A stretch of DNA of 5,204 nucleotides from the IMG/VR virus record IMGVR_UViG_2548876958_000011, one strand, 5' to 3'. The position numbers and the translations under genes are program-made. The notes beneath the pieces are model-generated. The model worked only from the letters and a program-made list of their open reading frames with translations, had not been told where the DNA came from and ran no database searches. Below, in pieces: positions 1 to 5,204 of this stretch. This DNA comes from a virus (taxonomy: Duplodnaviria > Heunggongvirae > Uroviricota > Caudoviricetes). How positions within the stretch are numbered: the first letter of the stretch is position 1; every line of letters starts with the position of its first letter.

Positions 1-200
1 CCCGGTGTCCTCAACGGGGAAGGAATAACCCCGCCATACTTACCGCCGCGCCATTTTGCGGGTTGCCACAACCGGAAGCGCACGGTCGAATTAAATTTAA
101 CGACACCGTACAGTGAGACGAACTTCGCCGTGCGCTTTCGTGTTGTGTGCCTGCTTTTAACCACGTCAGGCGAGGTGGTATCCTTAAAATCACCACAGTT

Positions 201-776
201 TTAAGGATTCATTAAGCAATGTCGCAACCACCAATAAATCCGCTTAAGAACATGAAAATTGATTACTGGTATAAAGCGCTTACAGTTGTTGGCGCTGCGT
301 TGTTTGTCTTTAATGGAACGTCTTTTTTTGACAGATATCCCGTTGTTCCATTGGGTTTTTTGTCCTCCGGCATCTTTTTTATTGGTTTGGGGGAGTGGAT
401 TAATCACCCTCTCAAAGTGAGATTTATTGGCCCTGGAGTTTGGACTCGTGGATATAATCGTTCTTCGTGCGCACTCGGTATCATCTTCGACATACTTGGT
501 TGTTTCCTGATTGTTACAGGAGTCGTCAAGTTCTTCTGATGTAAAACCGCAAATGGGGCACGTAACGGGAATTTTGAAAAGCGTTTCTCCGGGTTCCAGA
601 ACAAAATTTTCTGCGGTCTGATTTTGCTTCTCATATTTGTGCTCCGCGTCATTGTGAGAGCACATTCTTATTCTGAGTGCCTGTTTAAACTCACTGAAGC
701 TGAGAGCTTCTTCGCCTTCGGCAAGGCCTTCGAAGTATTCTTCGTAAGCCTTTTCCATGATTGTGTCGAAATCCAT
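201..776 (-). CDS. Acidic hypothetical protein, 191 aa as read to the first stop; C-terminal extent uncertain
   Basis: ATG at 776-774 preceded by AGGTGA with 5-nt spacing, 1 nt after the TGA of the upstream 51-aa ORF. N-terminal ~80 aa acidic and protein-like (MDFDTIMEKAYEEYFEGLAEGEE...). The distal ~110 aa is K/R/N/S-rich low complexity and is the codon-aligned antisense of the 219-539 membrane ORF, so it may be a shadow. Confidence 0.4.
   Translation of the reverse strand: MDFDTIMEKAYEEYFEGLAEGEEALSFSEFKQALRIRMCSHNDAEHKYEKQNQTAENFVLEPGETLFKIPVTCPICGFTSEELDDSCNNQETTKYVEDDTECARRTIISTSPNSRANKSHFERVINPLPQTNKKDAGGQKTQWNNGISVKKRRSIKDKQRSANNCKRFIPVINFHVLKRIYWWLRHCLMNP
219..539 (+). CDS. Small predicted membrane protein, 106 aa, about three hydrophobic segments; possible superinfection-exclusion-type function
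   Basis: ATG at 219 preceded by AAGGA (202-206); in-frame TAA at 213-215 prevents upstream extension. Hydrophobic stretches ALTVVGAALFVF, LGFLSSGIFFIGLGEWI and ALGIIFDILGCFLIVTGVV. Opposite orientation to neighbours, as for sieB in Rac-type prophages (synteny recall only). Fully overlapped antisense by the 201-776 ORF. Confidence 0.5.
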   Translation: MSQPPINPLKNMKIDYWYKALTVVGAALFVFNGTSFFDRYPVVPLGFLSSGIFFIGLGEWINHPLKVRFIGPGVWTRGYNRSSCALGIIFDILGCFLIVTGVVKFF

Positions 777-777
777 A

Positions 778-933
778 TCACTCACCTGAGTTTCTTTCCA
801 GCCAGCGACGGGCACCATTTTCGGTTTTAAACGTTTTGCTTTTGGTATACGTCATCGCGGTGAACGTGCCGTCCTGGTTGGGGAACACGCCACATACCAG
901 AGATTCGCTGTTGCCAAGATCGATAGTATCCAT
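778..933 (-). CDS. Small hypothetical protein, 51 aa, first gene of the leftward operon
   Basis: ATG at 933-931 preceded by AAGGGGAAATGAGG; stop TGA at 780-778. Protein MDTIDLGNSESLVCGVFPNQDGTFTAMTYTKSKTFKTENGARRWLERNSGE. Sits where the tiny ydaF/ydaG-type genes lie in Rac-type prophages (from memory, not verified). Confidence 0.5.
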   Translation of the reverse strand: MDTIDLGNSESLVCGVFPNQDGTFTAMTYTKSKTFKTENGARRWLERNSGE

Positions 934-1013
934 GCTGACCTCATTTCCCCTTAACGCCGGGGTAGCGGAACTGTTTGCTGAGAACACCGTGCGGTGTCTT
1001 GATGGAAAGTAAT

Positions 1014-1063
1014 TTAGAATAACCTAACATGATAGGCAAGTGTTTTTTGTTAGATTGGTCTAA
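1014..1063. promoter_or_regulatory. OL-like operator pair with candidate leftward promoter
   Basis: Perfect palindrome TTAGA-TTGG-TCTAA at 1050-1063, flanked G...C to give GTTAGA-N4-TCTAAC. Imperfect copy TTAGA-ATAA-CCTAAC at 1014-1028. On the minus strand a -35-like TTGCCT (1039-1034), 17-bp spacer and -10-like TAAATT (1016-1011) overlap the second site. Confidence 0.45.
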
Positions 1064-1101
1064 CAAAAAGAGTGGGCGCAACTAATCACTTGAAAAGAAT
1101 G

Positions 1102-1509
1102 TTATTTTATTGATTTATTTTTACGCGCTTTAAGCATTTCTTCGAAGAGTTTGTTGAAGTTTTCTACTCTTGCGCGCATTTCAGACAGCAAGGCTTCCTG
1201 CTCGGAAGATGGAAGAGCATCGAATAATTCGATCAATTCTTTGTGGTTGGGAGTTAGCTCTGTTTCCACATGAAGTTCTTGTGCAGGCACTGGTGCCTTG
1301 TCTTCGTCACCAAACATTAGCCATGTAGGTGAGCACTTCAGAGCATCCGCTAAAGCAAACAATCGTTTTCCGACTGGCTGGGTTTCGTCTCTTTCCCATT
1401 GTGAAATTGTGACGTGAGCAACTCCAGCGAGGCGCGCAGCTTCTCGTTGTGTTAAGCGTAATTCTTTTCGTCGCGCCAGAACTCGCTGGCCTAGGGTTCT
1501 TGTATCCAT
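1102..1509 (-). CDS. XRE-family HTH repressor (cI-like, DicA-like), 135 aa
   Basis: HTH segment LTQREAARLAGVAHVTISQWER near the N-terminus. Size and C-terminal region (CSPTWLMFGDEDK ... MRARVENFNKLFEEMLKAR) resemble DicA-type repressors as I recall them. Divergent from a Cro-like gene. No SD upstream of the ATG at 1509, suggesting a leaderless mRNA. Confidence 0.88.
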   Translation of the reverse strand: MDTRTLGQRVLARRKELRLTQREAARLAGVAHVTISQWERDETQPVGKRLFALADALKCSPTWLMFGDEDKAPVPAQELHVETELTPNHKELIELFDALPSSEQEALLSEMRARVENFNKLFEEMLKARKNKSIK

Positions 1510-1510
1510 A

Positions 1511-1574
1511 GTTAGGTAATTCTAATTTTTCTTGACTTAGATATCCCGCGCACAATAATGTTAGAAAAGTCTAA
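1511..1574. promoter_or_regulatory. OR-like region: rightward promoter with overlapping operators
   Basis: -35 TTGACT (1532-1537), 16-bp spacer, -10 AATAAT (1554-1559). Perfect palindrome TTAGA-AAAG-TCTAA at 1561-1574 over the predicted start site; imperfect GTTAGG-TAAT-TCTAAT at 1511-1526 upstream of -35; lone TTAGA half-site at 1537-1541. On the minus strand a TAGAAT -10-like hexamer (1525-1520) lies ~10 nt before the repressor ATG. Confidence 0.55.
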
Positions 1575-1589
1575 CAAGAGGGGGCTTTG

Positions 1590-1817
1590 ATGCTTAAAGT
1601 TGACGCAATTACTTTTTTTGGCAGCAAAACAAAGCTTGCCAATGCCGCAGGAGTGAGACTGGCAAGTGTTGCTGCTTGGGGGATACTGGTTCCTGAAGGT
1701 CGCGCGATGCGTCTACAGGAGGCATCTGGCGGGGAGCTTCTGTATGATCCCAAGGTTTATGACGAATATCGTAAGACGAAGCGGGCGGGGCGGTTGAACA
1801 ATGAAAATCACTCCTGA
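1590..1817 (+). CDS. Cro-like small DNA-binding protein (DicC/YdaS-like), 75 aa
   Basis: ATG at 1590 with AGAGGGGG 5 nt upstream; the track's start at 1587 is TTG one codon earlier. Segment FGSKTKLANAAGVRLASVAAW is HTH-like. Divergent from the repressor across the operator region. Resemblance to DicC is from memory. Confidence 0.75.
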   Translation: MLKVDAITFFGSKTKLANAAGVRLASVAAWGILVPEGRAMRLQEASGGELLYDPKVYDEYRKTKRAGRLNNENHS

Positions 1818-2322
1818 ACAGGCTCGTGAGGCTCTGGATGCCTGGATATGTCGACCAGGAATGACACAGGAGCAGGCGACGATATTAATCACTGAAGCAT
1901 TCTGGGCTTTGAAAGAGCGCCCGAACATCGATGTTCAGCGTGTCACAGATGAAGGTGGCGCGGTTGATCAGCGAGCGCTTGGCGTTAATCGAGTGAAGAT
2001 ATTCGAACGCTGGAAGGCTATCGACACCAGGGATAAGCGTGAAAAGTTCACGGCGCTAGTGCCTGCAATTATGGAGGCTATCCGGATTAATGATTTCAGG
2101 TTGTATCGTGAAATTAGTGACGGAAAAAGCATCACGTACATGATCGCCGGGTTAAACAAAGAATATGGCGATGTGGTGGAGTCCGGACTGCTTTTTGCTG
2201 ATCCTGCCGTAGTGGATCGTGAAACTGACGAACTTATAGAAAAAGCAATTGCTTTCAAACTTGCGTATCGACAGCAATACCAACAAAAAGCTGGATGGAA
2301 TTATGAGCCTTCTTTTTGCTGA
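1801..2322 (+). CDS. YdaT-like protein in the cII position, 173 aa
   Basis: ATG at 1801 overlaps the Cro-like stop by 17 nt. Immediately downstream of the Cro-like gene, where Rac/CP-933P-type prophages carry ydaT, reported as a CII functional analogue. Assignment is by synteny and recollection, not alignment. Confidence 0.55.
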   Translation: MKITPEQAREALDAWICRPGMTQEQATILITEAFWALKERPNIDVQRVTDEGGAVDQRALGVNRVKIFERWKAIDTRDKREKFTALVPAIMEAIRINDFRLYREISDGKSITYMIAGLNKEYGDVVESGLLFADPAVVDRETDELIEKAIAFKLAYRQQYQQKAGWNYEPSFC

Positions 2323-3268
2323 ACGCCCACTGGTTATAAACACACAGCTTGCGATGAAGATTGGCTTAAATGAAGCCATTGTGTTGCAGCAGTTGCATTA
2401 CTGGTTGAGAGATACCAATTCCGGCATGGAATGTGATGGTGTTCGCTGGATTTACAACACAACGGAACAATGGCTGGAACAGTTCCCATTCTGGTCAGAG
2501 TCAACGTTAAAGCGCGCGTTTGCAAGTCTGAAAACGCTGGGGCTTTTGCGTTGTGAAAAGCTCAATAAATCAAAGCGCGATATGACCAATTTCTACACGA
2601 TTAACTATGGGAGCGAGCTTTTAGATGATGGCAAATTGAGCGAATCCATCGGTTCAAAATGCGCCGCTCCATCAGGTCAAAATGACACGATGGAAGAGGT
2701 CAAAATGAAACGCTCCATTGGTTCAAAACGACCCAATGTCATCGGGTCAAAATGGCCCGATGATCCTACAGAGAATACAACAGAGATTACTACAGAGAAT
2801 AAAAACACTTTTCGTCCGGAAGCTTCGCAACCGGACCCGCAGACGGCTGAACAGGATTTTTTAATCCGGCACCCTGGCGCAGTTGTGTTTAGTGCGAAAA
2901 AACGCCAGTGGGATAGCCAGGAGGATCTGGCGTGTGCGCAGTGGATATGGGGGCGGATCGTGGGTCTCTACGAACAGGCCGCCAGTGATGATGGCGAGAT
3001 CATGCGACCAAAAGAGCCTAACTGGACTGTCTGGGCCAATGATGTGCGCACAATGCGGATGCTGGATGGCAGAAGCCACAGACAAATTTGTGAAATGTTT
3101 GGTCGGGTACAGCGGGATCCATTCTGGGTAAAAAACATCATGAGCCCGTCAAAGCTCCGCGAAAAATGGGACGAACTGGTCATCCGCCTGGGGCGTTCAC
3201 CTGTACAGCGTTGTGTTAATCATATTTCTGAACCGGATACAGAAATTCCGCCTGGTTTCAGAGGATAA
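2303..3268 (+). CDS. Phage replication initiation / replisome-organiser protein (O-like), 321 aa from ATG 2303
   Basis: N-terminal wHTH-like segment (LVINTQLAMKIGLNEAIVLQQLHYWL) typical of phage initiator N-domains. Iteron array and A/T-rich block lie inside the gene, as for ori-lambda inside O. The track's start at 2249 is TTG; ATG 2303 is preferred and overlaps the upstream stop by 20 nt. Confidence 0.8.
   Translation: MSLLFAERPLVINTQLAMKIGLNEAIVLQQLHYWLRDTNSGMECDGVRWIYNTTEQWLEQFPFWSESTLKRAFASLKTLGLLRCEKLNKSKRDMTNFYTINYGSELLDDGKLSESIGSKCAAPSGQNDTMEEVKMKRSIGSKRPNVIGSKWPDDPTENTTEITTENKNTFRPEASQPDPQTAEQDFLIRHPGAVVFSAKKRQWDSQEDLACAQWIWGRIVGLYEQAASDDGEIMRPKEPNWTVWANDVRTMRMLDGRSHRQICEMFGRVQRDPFWVKNIMSPSKLREKWDELVIRLGRSPVQRCVNHISEPDTEIPPGFRG
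2646..2755 (+). repeat. Replication-origin iterons, five copies of CCATYGGKTCAAAAYG-like repeat
   Basis: TCAAAA cores begin at 2654, 2677, 2700, 2723 and 2747, spaced 23/23/23/24 bp (about two helical turns). Copies fall in different reading frames, so conservation is at the DNA level. Confidence 0.7.
2765..2810 (+). other. A/T-rich block next to the iterons, candidate DNA-unwinding element
   Basis: Three tandem ACAGAGA(A/T)TAC-like units (2769-2802) followed by AAAAACACTTTT, directly downstream of the iterons, mirroring the ori-lambda layout. Confidence 0.5.
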
Positions 3269-3308
3269 GTTTTGATTTCAGGTCATGAGGTAATTTTAAG
3301 GGGGACTT

Positions 3309-3710
3309 GTGGCAAAAGTTTTTACACAAGAAGAGCGGGAAAAAATTAAAGGGCAGGTGGTGGAACTCGTGCGCCAGAGCGGTCGTGAGACGTTACGGCA
3401 ACTGGAAGCTAAAACAGGTGCGACTAGATATCTGATGAGCGTTCTTGCCAGAGAGCTGGTAGCCAGTGGCGATGTATACAACTCCGGCTACGGGTTATTC
3501 CCGTCTGAACAGGCGCGTAAGGACTGGCAAAACGCCCGCAAAAAACTCTCGAGGGCAAAGGTGAAGAAAACAGCTGTGGTTGATCCGGACCTTATCTGGT
3601 CGTTACCTGATGGAGAAATACGTCGCTACGACAGTCGCCTAAACATAATCTGTCGCGAGTGCCGGATGAGTGAAGTTATGCAGCGCATACTGGCATTTTA
3701 TCAGGGATAA
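3309..3710 (+). CDS. Hypothetical protein, 133 aa, possible winged-helix fold; function unknown
   Basis: GTG start at 3309 with strong SD AAGGGGGA (3299-3305); stop TAA 3708-3710. No Walker A motif, so not a DnaC/P-type helicase loader. Basic C-terminal half. Confidence 0.6.
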   Translation: MAKVFTQEEREKIKGQVVELVRQSGRETLRQLEAKTGATRYLMSVLARELVASGDVYNSGYGLFPSEQARKDWQNARKKLSRAKVKKTAVVDPDLIWSLPDGEIRRYDSRLNIICRECRMSEVMQRILAFYQG

Positions 3711-3806
3711 TGTTAGGTATTTTAGACGTTACTAGATTAAAAAGCATTAGTTCAGGAGTGAATTGACATTCTCATTTTTCATGGCACAGGGTAGATCTGG
3801 CGTGGT

Positions 3807-3832
3807 TGTCCGCTTTGTGCCAAAAGCGGACA
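3807..3832. terminator. Perfect 10-bp stem-loop in the convergent intergenic region; candidate terminator or RNA structure
   Basis: TGTCCGCTTT (3807-3816), loop GTGCCA, AAAGCGGACA (3823-3832). No clean U-tract on either strand, hence low confidence as an intrinsic terminator. Confidence 0.3.
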
Positions 3833-3928
3833 TCGAATAATTTCAGCAGCACTCAACCTTATTAACCAAATCGCCTCAACTCATATGGACATGCATCCGG
3901 AAGTGCCAACTTCGTAAACTTATTCACT

Positions 3929-5176
3929 TTAAGTCTGAGCCTCACTCTCTTGGCCATAAGTGGCTTGCCAGTATCTCGCCGTAGGGTTCATTAGAATGTG
4001 CAATACAAGCCACCATGCAAAAATGCAGGGAGGTTGATTGTAGTAACCGGCAGGCACATATCCGTGAGCTAGTTGATTTCGTAAATCACCATAGATTTTA
4101 TCTACCAGTAAGGCCTGAAGATTGCCAATTATGTCTACGCCGAAAGCTTCAATAATCAGTGGATTATCTAGTAATCCCTTGAGTCCATTTCGCTCTTGCG
4201 AACCGTCCCCGTGAAGCTGCGATGGTTCCTCACCTTTAATTTTAGCCACATATCTCAGACTATTTTCGATCTGGGGAATCAACACGTGGCATGCCGTCAT
4301 AAAATCTCCATTGAAACCGCAAACCATACCCTTGATGAAAAACTCTTCATGCCCAAACGGGATGAAGGGATGATTGATGAACATATCGCGAAAAAACGCC
4401 TCCGAGATTGGATATTTCATTGTGATCTCATCTGTAGCAGGAATAATTTGCCCAGCTACTGCCAACTCATGGTCGATACGCATTCTCGTCATCATTATGG
4501 GCCAAATAACTGCCCCATTTGCATCATCAATCCCCAATCCTGCGGGTATGCGAGCAAGTGTCATTCCCTCATGATCAATATGTGTTGATCCAAACATCCA
4601 AGCTATGCTGTTGGCCTTTTGTTCTATTGCTTGAGCCTTAAGTCTCTCAATGCTGGTTGGCCGACAGACCAGCATCGCAAGTCTGAAAACCATATCAAAC
4701 AAATCTCTTCCGACTACCCGACTCTTGGCTTGATGGACAATCTCACTAATATCTTGAGGGGGAGACTGAAGGATAGACATCTGGTGACGGGATTCGATTT
4801 GGTAATCACGCATTTCTTCATACAGCGCAAGACGTTCTATTCGGGTTCCTGGAATATTAGCCAGTGCTTCAATAGCATTCTGCATGCAGGCTGCCGAAAT
4901 CATACCGCCATCTTGGAATTTTGACTCTTCCAGATGTGTATCGGCAAGAAGCCGCCAGAATTCAAACTGTGTATCTCTGTCACAGCACCTATTCGCAATC
5001 GGGATTGCGGTTTTACAGGCATCGACGGCAAATGAAAATAATTTTTGAGCCAGATAGTTTTTTGTCAGAAACAGGAGTTCCTGGGCAATAAAAGATGGCT
5101 CACTCACTTTACAGTCGATATCGAGTTGCAGGAGTCGCAGCGGATAAGGTGGATTTGCCCCTATATTTCCAGACAC
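3929..5176 (-). CDS. Hypothetical 415-aa protein with C-terminal HEPN-like R-x4-H-x-Y signature; candidate abortive-infection / defence protein
   Basis: Long ORF convergent with the phage early operon. Motif DLRNQLAHGY at residues 364-373 (nt 4058-4081). Duplicated IDHE motifs (HIDHEGM, RIDHELA) mid-protein. GTG start at 5176 with weak SD, so the N-terminus is uncertain. Stop TAA 3931-3929. Confidence 0.7.
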   Translation of the reverse strand: MSGNIGANPPYPLRLLQLDIDCKVSEPSFIAQELLFLTKNYLAQKLFSFAVDACKTAIPIANRCCDRDTQFEFWRLLADTHLEESKFQDGGMISAACMQNAIEALANIPGTRIERLALYEEMRDYQIESRHQMSILQSPPQDISEIVHQAKSRVVGRDLFDMVFRLAMLVCRPTSIERLKAQAIEQKANSIAWMFGSTHIDHEGMTLARIPAGLGIDDANGAVIWPIMMTRMRIDHELAVAGQIIPATDEITMKYPISEAFFRDMFINHPFIPFGHEEFFIKGMVCGFNGDFMTACHVLIPQIENSLRYVAKIKGEEPSQLHGDGSQERNGLKGLLDNPLIIEAFGVDIIGNLQALLVDKIYGDLRNQLAHGYVPAGYYNQPPCIFAWWLVLHILMNPTARYWQATYGQESEAQT

Positions 5177-5204
5177 CTGTTATCACTTAACCCATTACTG
5201 GCTT

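Follow-up and report, generated by a model that had tools for sequence, protein, structure and literature searches.

A probable IS2-interrupted remnant of a prophage DUF7380-DUF4209 HEPN gene at the edge of an Escherichia coli contig

The bacterial and eukaryotic proteins closest to the one described here are grouped by DUF4209, which corresponds to the C6orf70 HEPN family and has a conserved catalytic motif (Anantharaman et al. 2013, PMC3710099). Bacterial DUF4209 members are fused to TPR-like repeats and occur in R-M-related operons (PMC3710099). A separate set, the PDC systems of PADLOC, comprises 145 phage defence candidates drawn from genes embedded in BREX, DISARM or type I RM loci (Payne et al., bioRxiv 10.1101/2024.01.29.577857). 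In the literature, PDC-S39 appears in two papers, both of which only list PADLOC predictions. A literature search found no experimental paper showing RNase or anti-phage activity of any family member, and no papers on DUF7380 or on ERMARD together with HEPN. The characterised HEPN RNases that we count among the closest systems are the HEPN-MNT toxins (SO_3166), Csm6/Csx1, RnlA/LsoA, and the HEPN domains of AbiA and AbiV.

The stretch of DNA analysed here (the window) is the entire 5204-bp contig AIBX01000156.1 of the draft E. coli assembly GCA_000447005.2. It contains a long reading frame ending in a DUF4209 domain, which a sequence-only reading had proposed as a moron-like defence gene, perhaps of an undescribed HEPN architecture.

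The reading frame and its junction with IS2

The minus strand of the window carries an ORF of 415 codons, running from a GTG at 5176 to a TAA at 3929, with the string RNQLAHGY at ORF residues 366-373 (window 4081-4058, minus strand). The ORF and its Rx4HxY motif are thus both present as the sequence-only reading had described them. The reported convergence with the phage early operon is also borne out, as the ORF faces plus-strand genes for a Cro-like protein, a YdaT-family protein, an O-like replication initiator (PHROG 391 match, E = 1e-91) and a DUF977 protein. A perfect 10-bp inverted repeat with a 6-nt loop (3807-3832) follows the gene, within the 218 bp that separate DUF4209 from the convergent DUF977 gene, and possibly forms a bidirectional terminator hairpin. 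It was not flagged by the consensus terminator scan, because it has no clear T-run.

Comparison of the region upstream of the ORF with complete E. coli genomes showed an abrupt end of homology. A megablast search with window positions 3700-5204 gave many matches at 99.8-99.9% identity, all ending by query position 1455 (window 5154), while the last ~50 bases of the window matched thousands of other places. In a direct alignment, window 1-5151 was 99.86% identical to a prophage of E. coli ATCC 25922, and homology ended at 5151. Comparison with phage records showed that window 5150-5204 (minus strand) is identical in 55/55 positions to the terminal bases of IS2 downstream of insD, in elements annotated with InsC and InsD. 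This segment is the IS2 right end (IRR) and includes the last 13 codons and stop of InsD (5202-5161). From 5150, the sequence TGGATTTGCCCCTATATTTCCAGACACC... matches the outermost IS2 bases adjoining insD; the 2 nt at 5150-5151 could belong to either the gene or IS2.

The minus-strand frame that runs off the contig edge reads ...ASNGLSDNRCLEI* and is identical to the InsD C-terminus, with its stop codon TAG at 5163-5161. Another phase, ending in TAA at 5189-5187, had earlier been offered as a possible sign of an upstream gene; it consists of five open codons from the contig edge and carries no meaning, the true edge frame being that of InsD.

Because the alignment stops at 5151 and window 5150-5204 is the IS2 end, the GTG at 5176 and codons 1-9 are IS2 sequence. 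This apparent start (GTG and 8 further codons, MSGNIGANP; 5150-5176, minus strand) is not native, and its residues do not align to the family. The view of the ORF as a complete gene therefore fails, since only codons 10-415 are native. In the intact allele, the residues on the two sides of the break are ...ERTREQGDS and PYPLRLLQ.... The GTG sits 13 nt before the insD stop codon; the remnant is fused in frame and shares the strand of insD. The GTG lacks a preceding Shine-Dalgarno-like sequence (upstream ...TTAAGTGATAACAG), and a consensus scan within the window detected no promoter-like site between the GTG and the contig end. Across the surroundings of the gene, in the window and at the intact locus, consensus scans for promoters and terminators gave counts not above those of shuffled sequence.

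The contig holds a single IS2 junction, with the other junction, and with it any 5-bp target-site duplication, lying outside it and the 5' piece of the gene presumably on another contig of the assembly, so that the event may have been either a simple insertion or an IS-associated deletion or rearrangement. The evidence for the junction is an IS2 end at the edge of a draft contig in one assembly.

The intact gene and its HEPN domain

Codons 10-415 of the ORF correspond to residues 190-595 of the 595-aa protein WP_000340969.1 ('DUF4209 domain-containing protein'), with 0 DNA differences over 1221 nt. The native 3' portion of this DUF7380-DUF4209 (PDC-S39) gene, codons 190-595 and the stop, occupies 3929-5151 (minus strand), does not differ from ATCC 25922 over 3929-5149, and ends with the ATCC 25922 alignment at 5151. 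In the intact allele, the 187-189 residues that the window copy has lost match Pfam DUF7380 (PF24098) over nearly the whole profile (E = 2e-35); a Pfam search of the window ORF gave no DUF7380 match. Alignment of 41 sequences showed DUF7380 and DUF4209 together in 40/40 full-length homologues, the window ORF alone being without DUF7380. Residues of the lost part that are at least 90% conserved include A104, R105, D108, A124, Y128, R151, A152 and L155.

An exhaustive profile search retrieved representatives of 7365 clusters at 50% identity with E ≤ 0.001, of which 2788 had E ≤ 1e-30. The best 150 of the 7365 representatives are all 554-673 aa long and align to the profile nearly end to end. The exact 415-aa protein is confined to a single contig; its RefSeq entry, WP_024244752.1, is already labelled DUF4209. 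As the full-length homologues keep DUF7380 and the exact 415-aa form is unique to one contig, this form is not a natural architecture of the family. The proposal of an undescribed HEPN architecture is accordingly replaced by that of a shortened copy from a large, catalogued family. The intact architecture is an N-terminal DUF7380 domain, TPR-like helical repeats and a C-terminal DUF4209 HEPN domain, encoded as single-gene prophage cargo.

The PADLOC PDC-S39 profiles also match the ORF strongly (E = 1.2e-74 and 1e-73), with only positions 248-584 of 595 and 212-602 of 615 aligned; neither full-length coverage of PDC-S39 nor a DUF7380 domain is found in the window ORF. A match to PHROG 5183, a family without assigned function, was also obtained, and an NCBIfam scan gave no match.

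The retained part of the protein contains Pfam DUF4209 (PF13910, ERMARD/C6orf70-type HEPN) at ORF residues 304-393 (3998-4267, minus strand; E = 1.8e-8), with a score of 34.7 bits against a gathering cut-off of 22.3. All 41 aligned sequences match DUF4209. In these sequences, which extend down to 24% identity, R546 and H551 (R366 and H371 of the ORF) and G552 are invariant, and the N of the HEPN R-x4-H motif RNQLAHGY (4058-4081, minus strand) is at least 90% conserved. The general string R-x4-6-H occurs four times in the ORF, and at least once in 85% of residue shuffles (mean 1.7); the other three occurrences are not invariant. The longer form R-x4-H-x-Y was found in 2% of residue shuffles of the ORF. 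The presence of the motif is by itself not beyond chance, and its weight comes from conservation and fold.

A second conserved motif, PQIENSLR (full-length residues 481-488; 4253-4276, minus strand), has Q482, E484, S486 and R488 invariant in the 41 sequences, and lies inside a model helix (472-493) that precedes the helix carrying R-x4-H. It is as conserved as R-x4-H and may contribute to the active site; we found no description of this motif.

The AlphaFold2 model of the full-length protein had a pLDDT of 90.0, and that of the C-terminal domain (full-length residues 400-595, ORF residues 220-415; 3932-4519, minus strand) a pLDDT of 90.2 and a pTM of 0.85. In the model, helical repeats are followed by a HEPN-like domain, with the compact all-alpha, four-helix up-and-down arrangement of the HEPN fold. 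A Foldseek search of the C-terminal domain against the PDB returned no significant match, and a PDB sequence-profile search with the family alignment returned marginal TPR-like matches only (best E = 0.004), with no solved relative. Of the structural support sought by the sequence-only reading, the confident helical HEPN-like model was thus obtained and a significant PDB match was not. Its Pfam check was positive, and its assignment of the C-terminal region to HEPN is upheld by the DUF4209 score above the gathering cut-off, the classification of this family as HEPN (PMC3710099) and the invariance of R366 and H371 in the 41 sequences. As judged from these matches and the model, the retained C-terminal part is a HEPN domain, already known as such.

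Context and distribution of the intact gene

The intact gene of ATCC 25922 belongs to a Qin/Rac-like prophage, where it has the DUF977/O-like replication genes on one side and hokD/rem/ydfU/Q on the other. It is encoded on the opposite strand to the surrounding operon, in the kind of location described for morons. Upstream of it there is a 675-bp spacer followed by divergent hokD, and a consensus scan detected no minus-strand promoter upstream of the gene.

Homologues in other bacteria have different surroundings. In Vibrio cholerae, the homologue is solitary, in a small island between housekeeping genes and with no defence neighbours; in a Pseudomonas island, it is again solitary, beside a HigBA-like pair. 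A homologue in an Enterobacter kobei prophage, 39% identical, lies just downstream of the Q antiterminator genes and upstream of the holin gene (L008/L009 8001-9815). The E. kobei slot is the one where Shiga toxin genes sit in Stx phages. It differs from that in ATCC 25922, which means that the family occupies different cargo slots in different prophages. No conserved partner gene was found next to the HEPN gene, the neighbours in Vibrio, Pseudomonas and Enterobacter being wholly different. These solitary contexts support a mobile single-gene cargo in moron-like positions and argue against a multi-gene system. The idea that the ORF is the distal gene of such a system does not survive, since IS2 lies upstream and the homologues elsewhere are solitary genes. 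A role as a prophage accessory or defence-candidate gene, which had also been put forward, is plausible for the intact gene, given the PDC-S39 match, the opposite strand within a prophage and the E. kobei homologue.

To describe the occurrence of the gene in E. coli, 5426 complete genomes were considered. The gene is present in 152 (2.8%), in each case chromosomal and at least 99% identical, with at least 80% of the gene covered in 147 of the 152. The IS2 junction of the window was found in none of the 5426 genomes. IS1203 has inserted at another place in the gene in two genomes, and deletions are found in a few, showing that damage to the gene is recurrent. Disruption of the ORF in related genomes had been named as a finding that would speak against a functional gene. 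It applies here in reverse: there is a disrupted copy, and it is the window's own.

In E. coli 720632 (L010 1501-4601), and also in H50, the gene is split further downstream by IS1203, an IS3-family element, and RefSeq annotates the split copy as two separate CDSs, 'DUF7380...' and 'DUF4209...'. Strain A10 (NZ_CP195143.1, L011 4540-4660) has a 5.3-kb deletion of nearly exactly the segment present on the window contig, from 84 nt upstream of the dicB start to nucleotide 576 of the gene (compare ATCC 25922, L001 2102 and 7442). At the joint there are 6 bp of microhomology (TATCCG). One end is just 9 bp away from the IS2 site of the window, which may be a coincidence or a fragile spot. An IS2-mediated origin of the A10 deletion was considered and rejected, as no IS is present there and the joint is one of 6-bp microhomology; we take it as an independent event.

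The remainder of the window has some further features. An ORF of 191-205 aa at 201-776/818 (minus strand) has an end-to-end match to PHROG 35040 (E = 2e-140), and the short family PHROG 2061 matches its first ~34 residues; at the position of this gene in ATCC 25922, RefSeq has only a partial 'ydfB' pseudogene, leaving ~900 bp unannotated. Antisense to it, at 219-539 (plus strand), is a 106-aa hydrophobic ORF with no Pfam or PHROG match, probably a shadow ORF. The Cro-like (1587-1817, plus strand) and O-like (2249-3268, plus strand) genes are intact in the window and annotated as frameshifted in ATCC 25922 (L001 3893-4119 and 4605-5569), and the three gaps of the 5151-nt ATCC 25922 alignment probably lie in these two genes. 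The immunity and replication module of the window copy thus looks less decayed, despite the broken HEPN gene. An Rfam scan of the whole window gave no match, and DicF is not in the contig.

Explanations of the locus and comparison with known systems

The 415-codon ORF is best explained as a pseudogene fragment, with a probability of roughly 0.88: a 595-residue prophage gene was interrupted by IS2 between codons 189 and 190. Its 3' 406 codons are retained on the contig, joined in frame to 9 codons from the right end of IS2, where a chance GTG opens the frame. The IS2 event appears recent, because the remnant has no further mutations. Without DUF7380, the native promoter, ribosome-binding site and start codon, the window copy is most likely silent or non-functional. 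So understood, it is an ordinary, recent IS2-inactivated member of a known and annotated family, and not a new gene.

For the intact protein, the analysis shows the domain order, fold and motifs; the mechanism beyond these features is inferred from characterised HEPN effectors, and would be that of a stand-alone, sensor-coupled HEPN endoribonuclease. Its N-terminal domain and helical repeats would either restrain the predicted RNase or detect infection. Once activated, a pair of HEPN domains may bring their R-x4-H motifs together and cleave RNA, which would arrest the infected cell and block the phage as in abortive infection. As a separate possibility, the allele of ATCC 25922, being intact, may be a working single-protein abortive-infection RNase of a large candidate family.

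Other explanations have evidence in their favour. The ORF does close with a conserved HEPN domain whose R-x4-H motif is intact, and its kept part is free of inactivating mutations, as would be expected of a complete and functional HEPN defence gene starting at GTG 5176 and possibly standing last in a longer operon. We regard this as very improbable, given that the start codon and first 9 codons come from IS2, the GTG has no Shine-Dalgarno-like sequence, the upstream frame is that of the InsD transposase with no partner gene, the full-length homologues are all ~600 aa with DUF7380, and the exact protein is restricted to one contig. An assembly artefact, in which an IS2 tail was mis-joined at the contig end and the gene is intact in the real genome, is equally hard to credit. 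The junction indeed lies close to where a short draft contig ends (53-55 nt away), in one assembly only, and recurs in no complete E. coli genome. However, the first base of the foreign sequence is precisely the terminal one of the IS2 inverted repeat (TGGATTTGCC...), as in a true insertion, which is unlikely for a random chimera; draft contigs at real IS copies usually end one k-mer into the repeat; and independent IS1203 insertions in the same gene are found in two genomes. The IS2-interrupted gene could also still be expressed, by read-through from insCD or from an internal start, giving an N-terminally truncated, deregulated HEPN RNase whose toxic or defensive activity would be residual or altered. 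Both the helical repeats and the HEPN part have been left whole, and the remnant shares its strand with insD in a fusion that keeps the frame, with the GTG just before the insD stop. Against this, IS2 transposase is weakly transcribed and translated, a ribosome-binding site is absent, and the nearly invariant residues of the lost domain argue that this domain is needed. In the model, moreover, a continuous helical stack loses about six of its helices through the break, so that the fragment probably folds poorly, and a constitutively active RNase would presumably be counter-selected. Such expression is thus unlikely, and we give the same low credence to a translated in-frame IS2 fusion that yields a 'decapitated' HEPN protein lacking the DUF7380 sensor or lock domain. 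If it were produced, the decapitated protein would represent a separation-of-function allele that arose spontaneously, and would reveal whether the RNase is autoinhibited by its N-terminal domain.

A further alternative concerns the function of the family, and is therefore compatible with truncation of the window copy. The intact DUF7380-DUF4209 protein might not be an anti-phage effector but a toxin for maintenance of prophages or islands, or an RNA-processing or regulatory HEPN protein. PDC-S39 is a guilt-by-embedding candidate only, the Vibrio cholerae copy lies between housekeeping genes without defence neighbours, eukaryotic C6orf70/ERMARD is predicted to act in ER-associated RNA degradation, and some HEPN proteins, such as MtlR, are non-catalytic. 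On the other hand, the predicted catalytic R-x4-H is invariant, the distribution is patchy (2.8% of E. coli) at 99% identity or more and on prophages and small islands, and association with R-M loci emerged from two independent analyses. We consider a non-defence role a real possibility, though a doubtful one.

Interruption of the gene by IS2 makes the locus itself of little import, as the breaking of a prophage accessory gene by a mobile element is routine. It does carry a lesson for annotation, in that an ORF at a contig edge can take its start codon from an insertion sequence. The remaining interest lies with the family and not with the window locus. The family merits experiment: it has thousands of 50%-identity clusters and an invariant predicted HEPN catalytic motif, two independent context analyses point to it as a defence candidate, and it is present in the reference strain ATCC 25922.

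Compared with known systems, the gene resembles PDC-S39 in being a single gene with a strong HMM match, while the window copy is a fragment, matched from about profile position 212 onward. It shares with Pfam DUF4209 (PF13910, now labelled EMARD_N), or the C6orf70/ERMARD family, the conserved R-x4-H and the succession of helical repeats and HEPN-like domain. The eukaryotic prototype differs in having a transmembrane segment and a predicted ER role, whereas the bacterial protein is found on prophages and islands, and the window copy departs from the DUF4209 family in having no N-terminal third. The exact right terminus of IS2 and the InsD C-terminus abut the gene remnant, as in inactivation by this IS3-family element, of which 55 bases are inside the contig. 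The nearest relative is E. coli WP_000340969.1, carried by ATCC 25922 and about 150 other complete genomes. Unlike this gene, the window allele is cut by IS2 after codon 189 and lacks DUF7380 together with the native start codon and upstream region; over residues 190-595 the two are identical in DNA, and they share the same flanking genes, DUF977, O-like, YdaT, Cro, repressor and ydfA.
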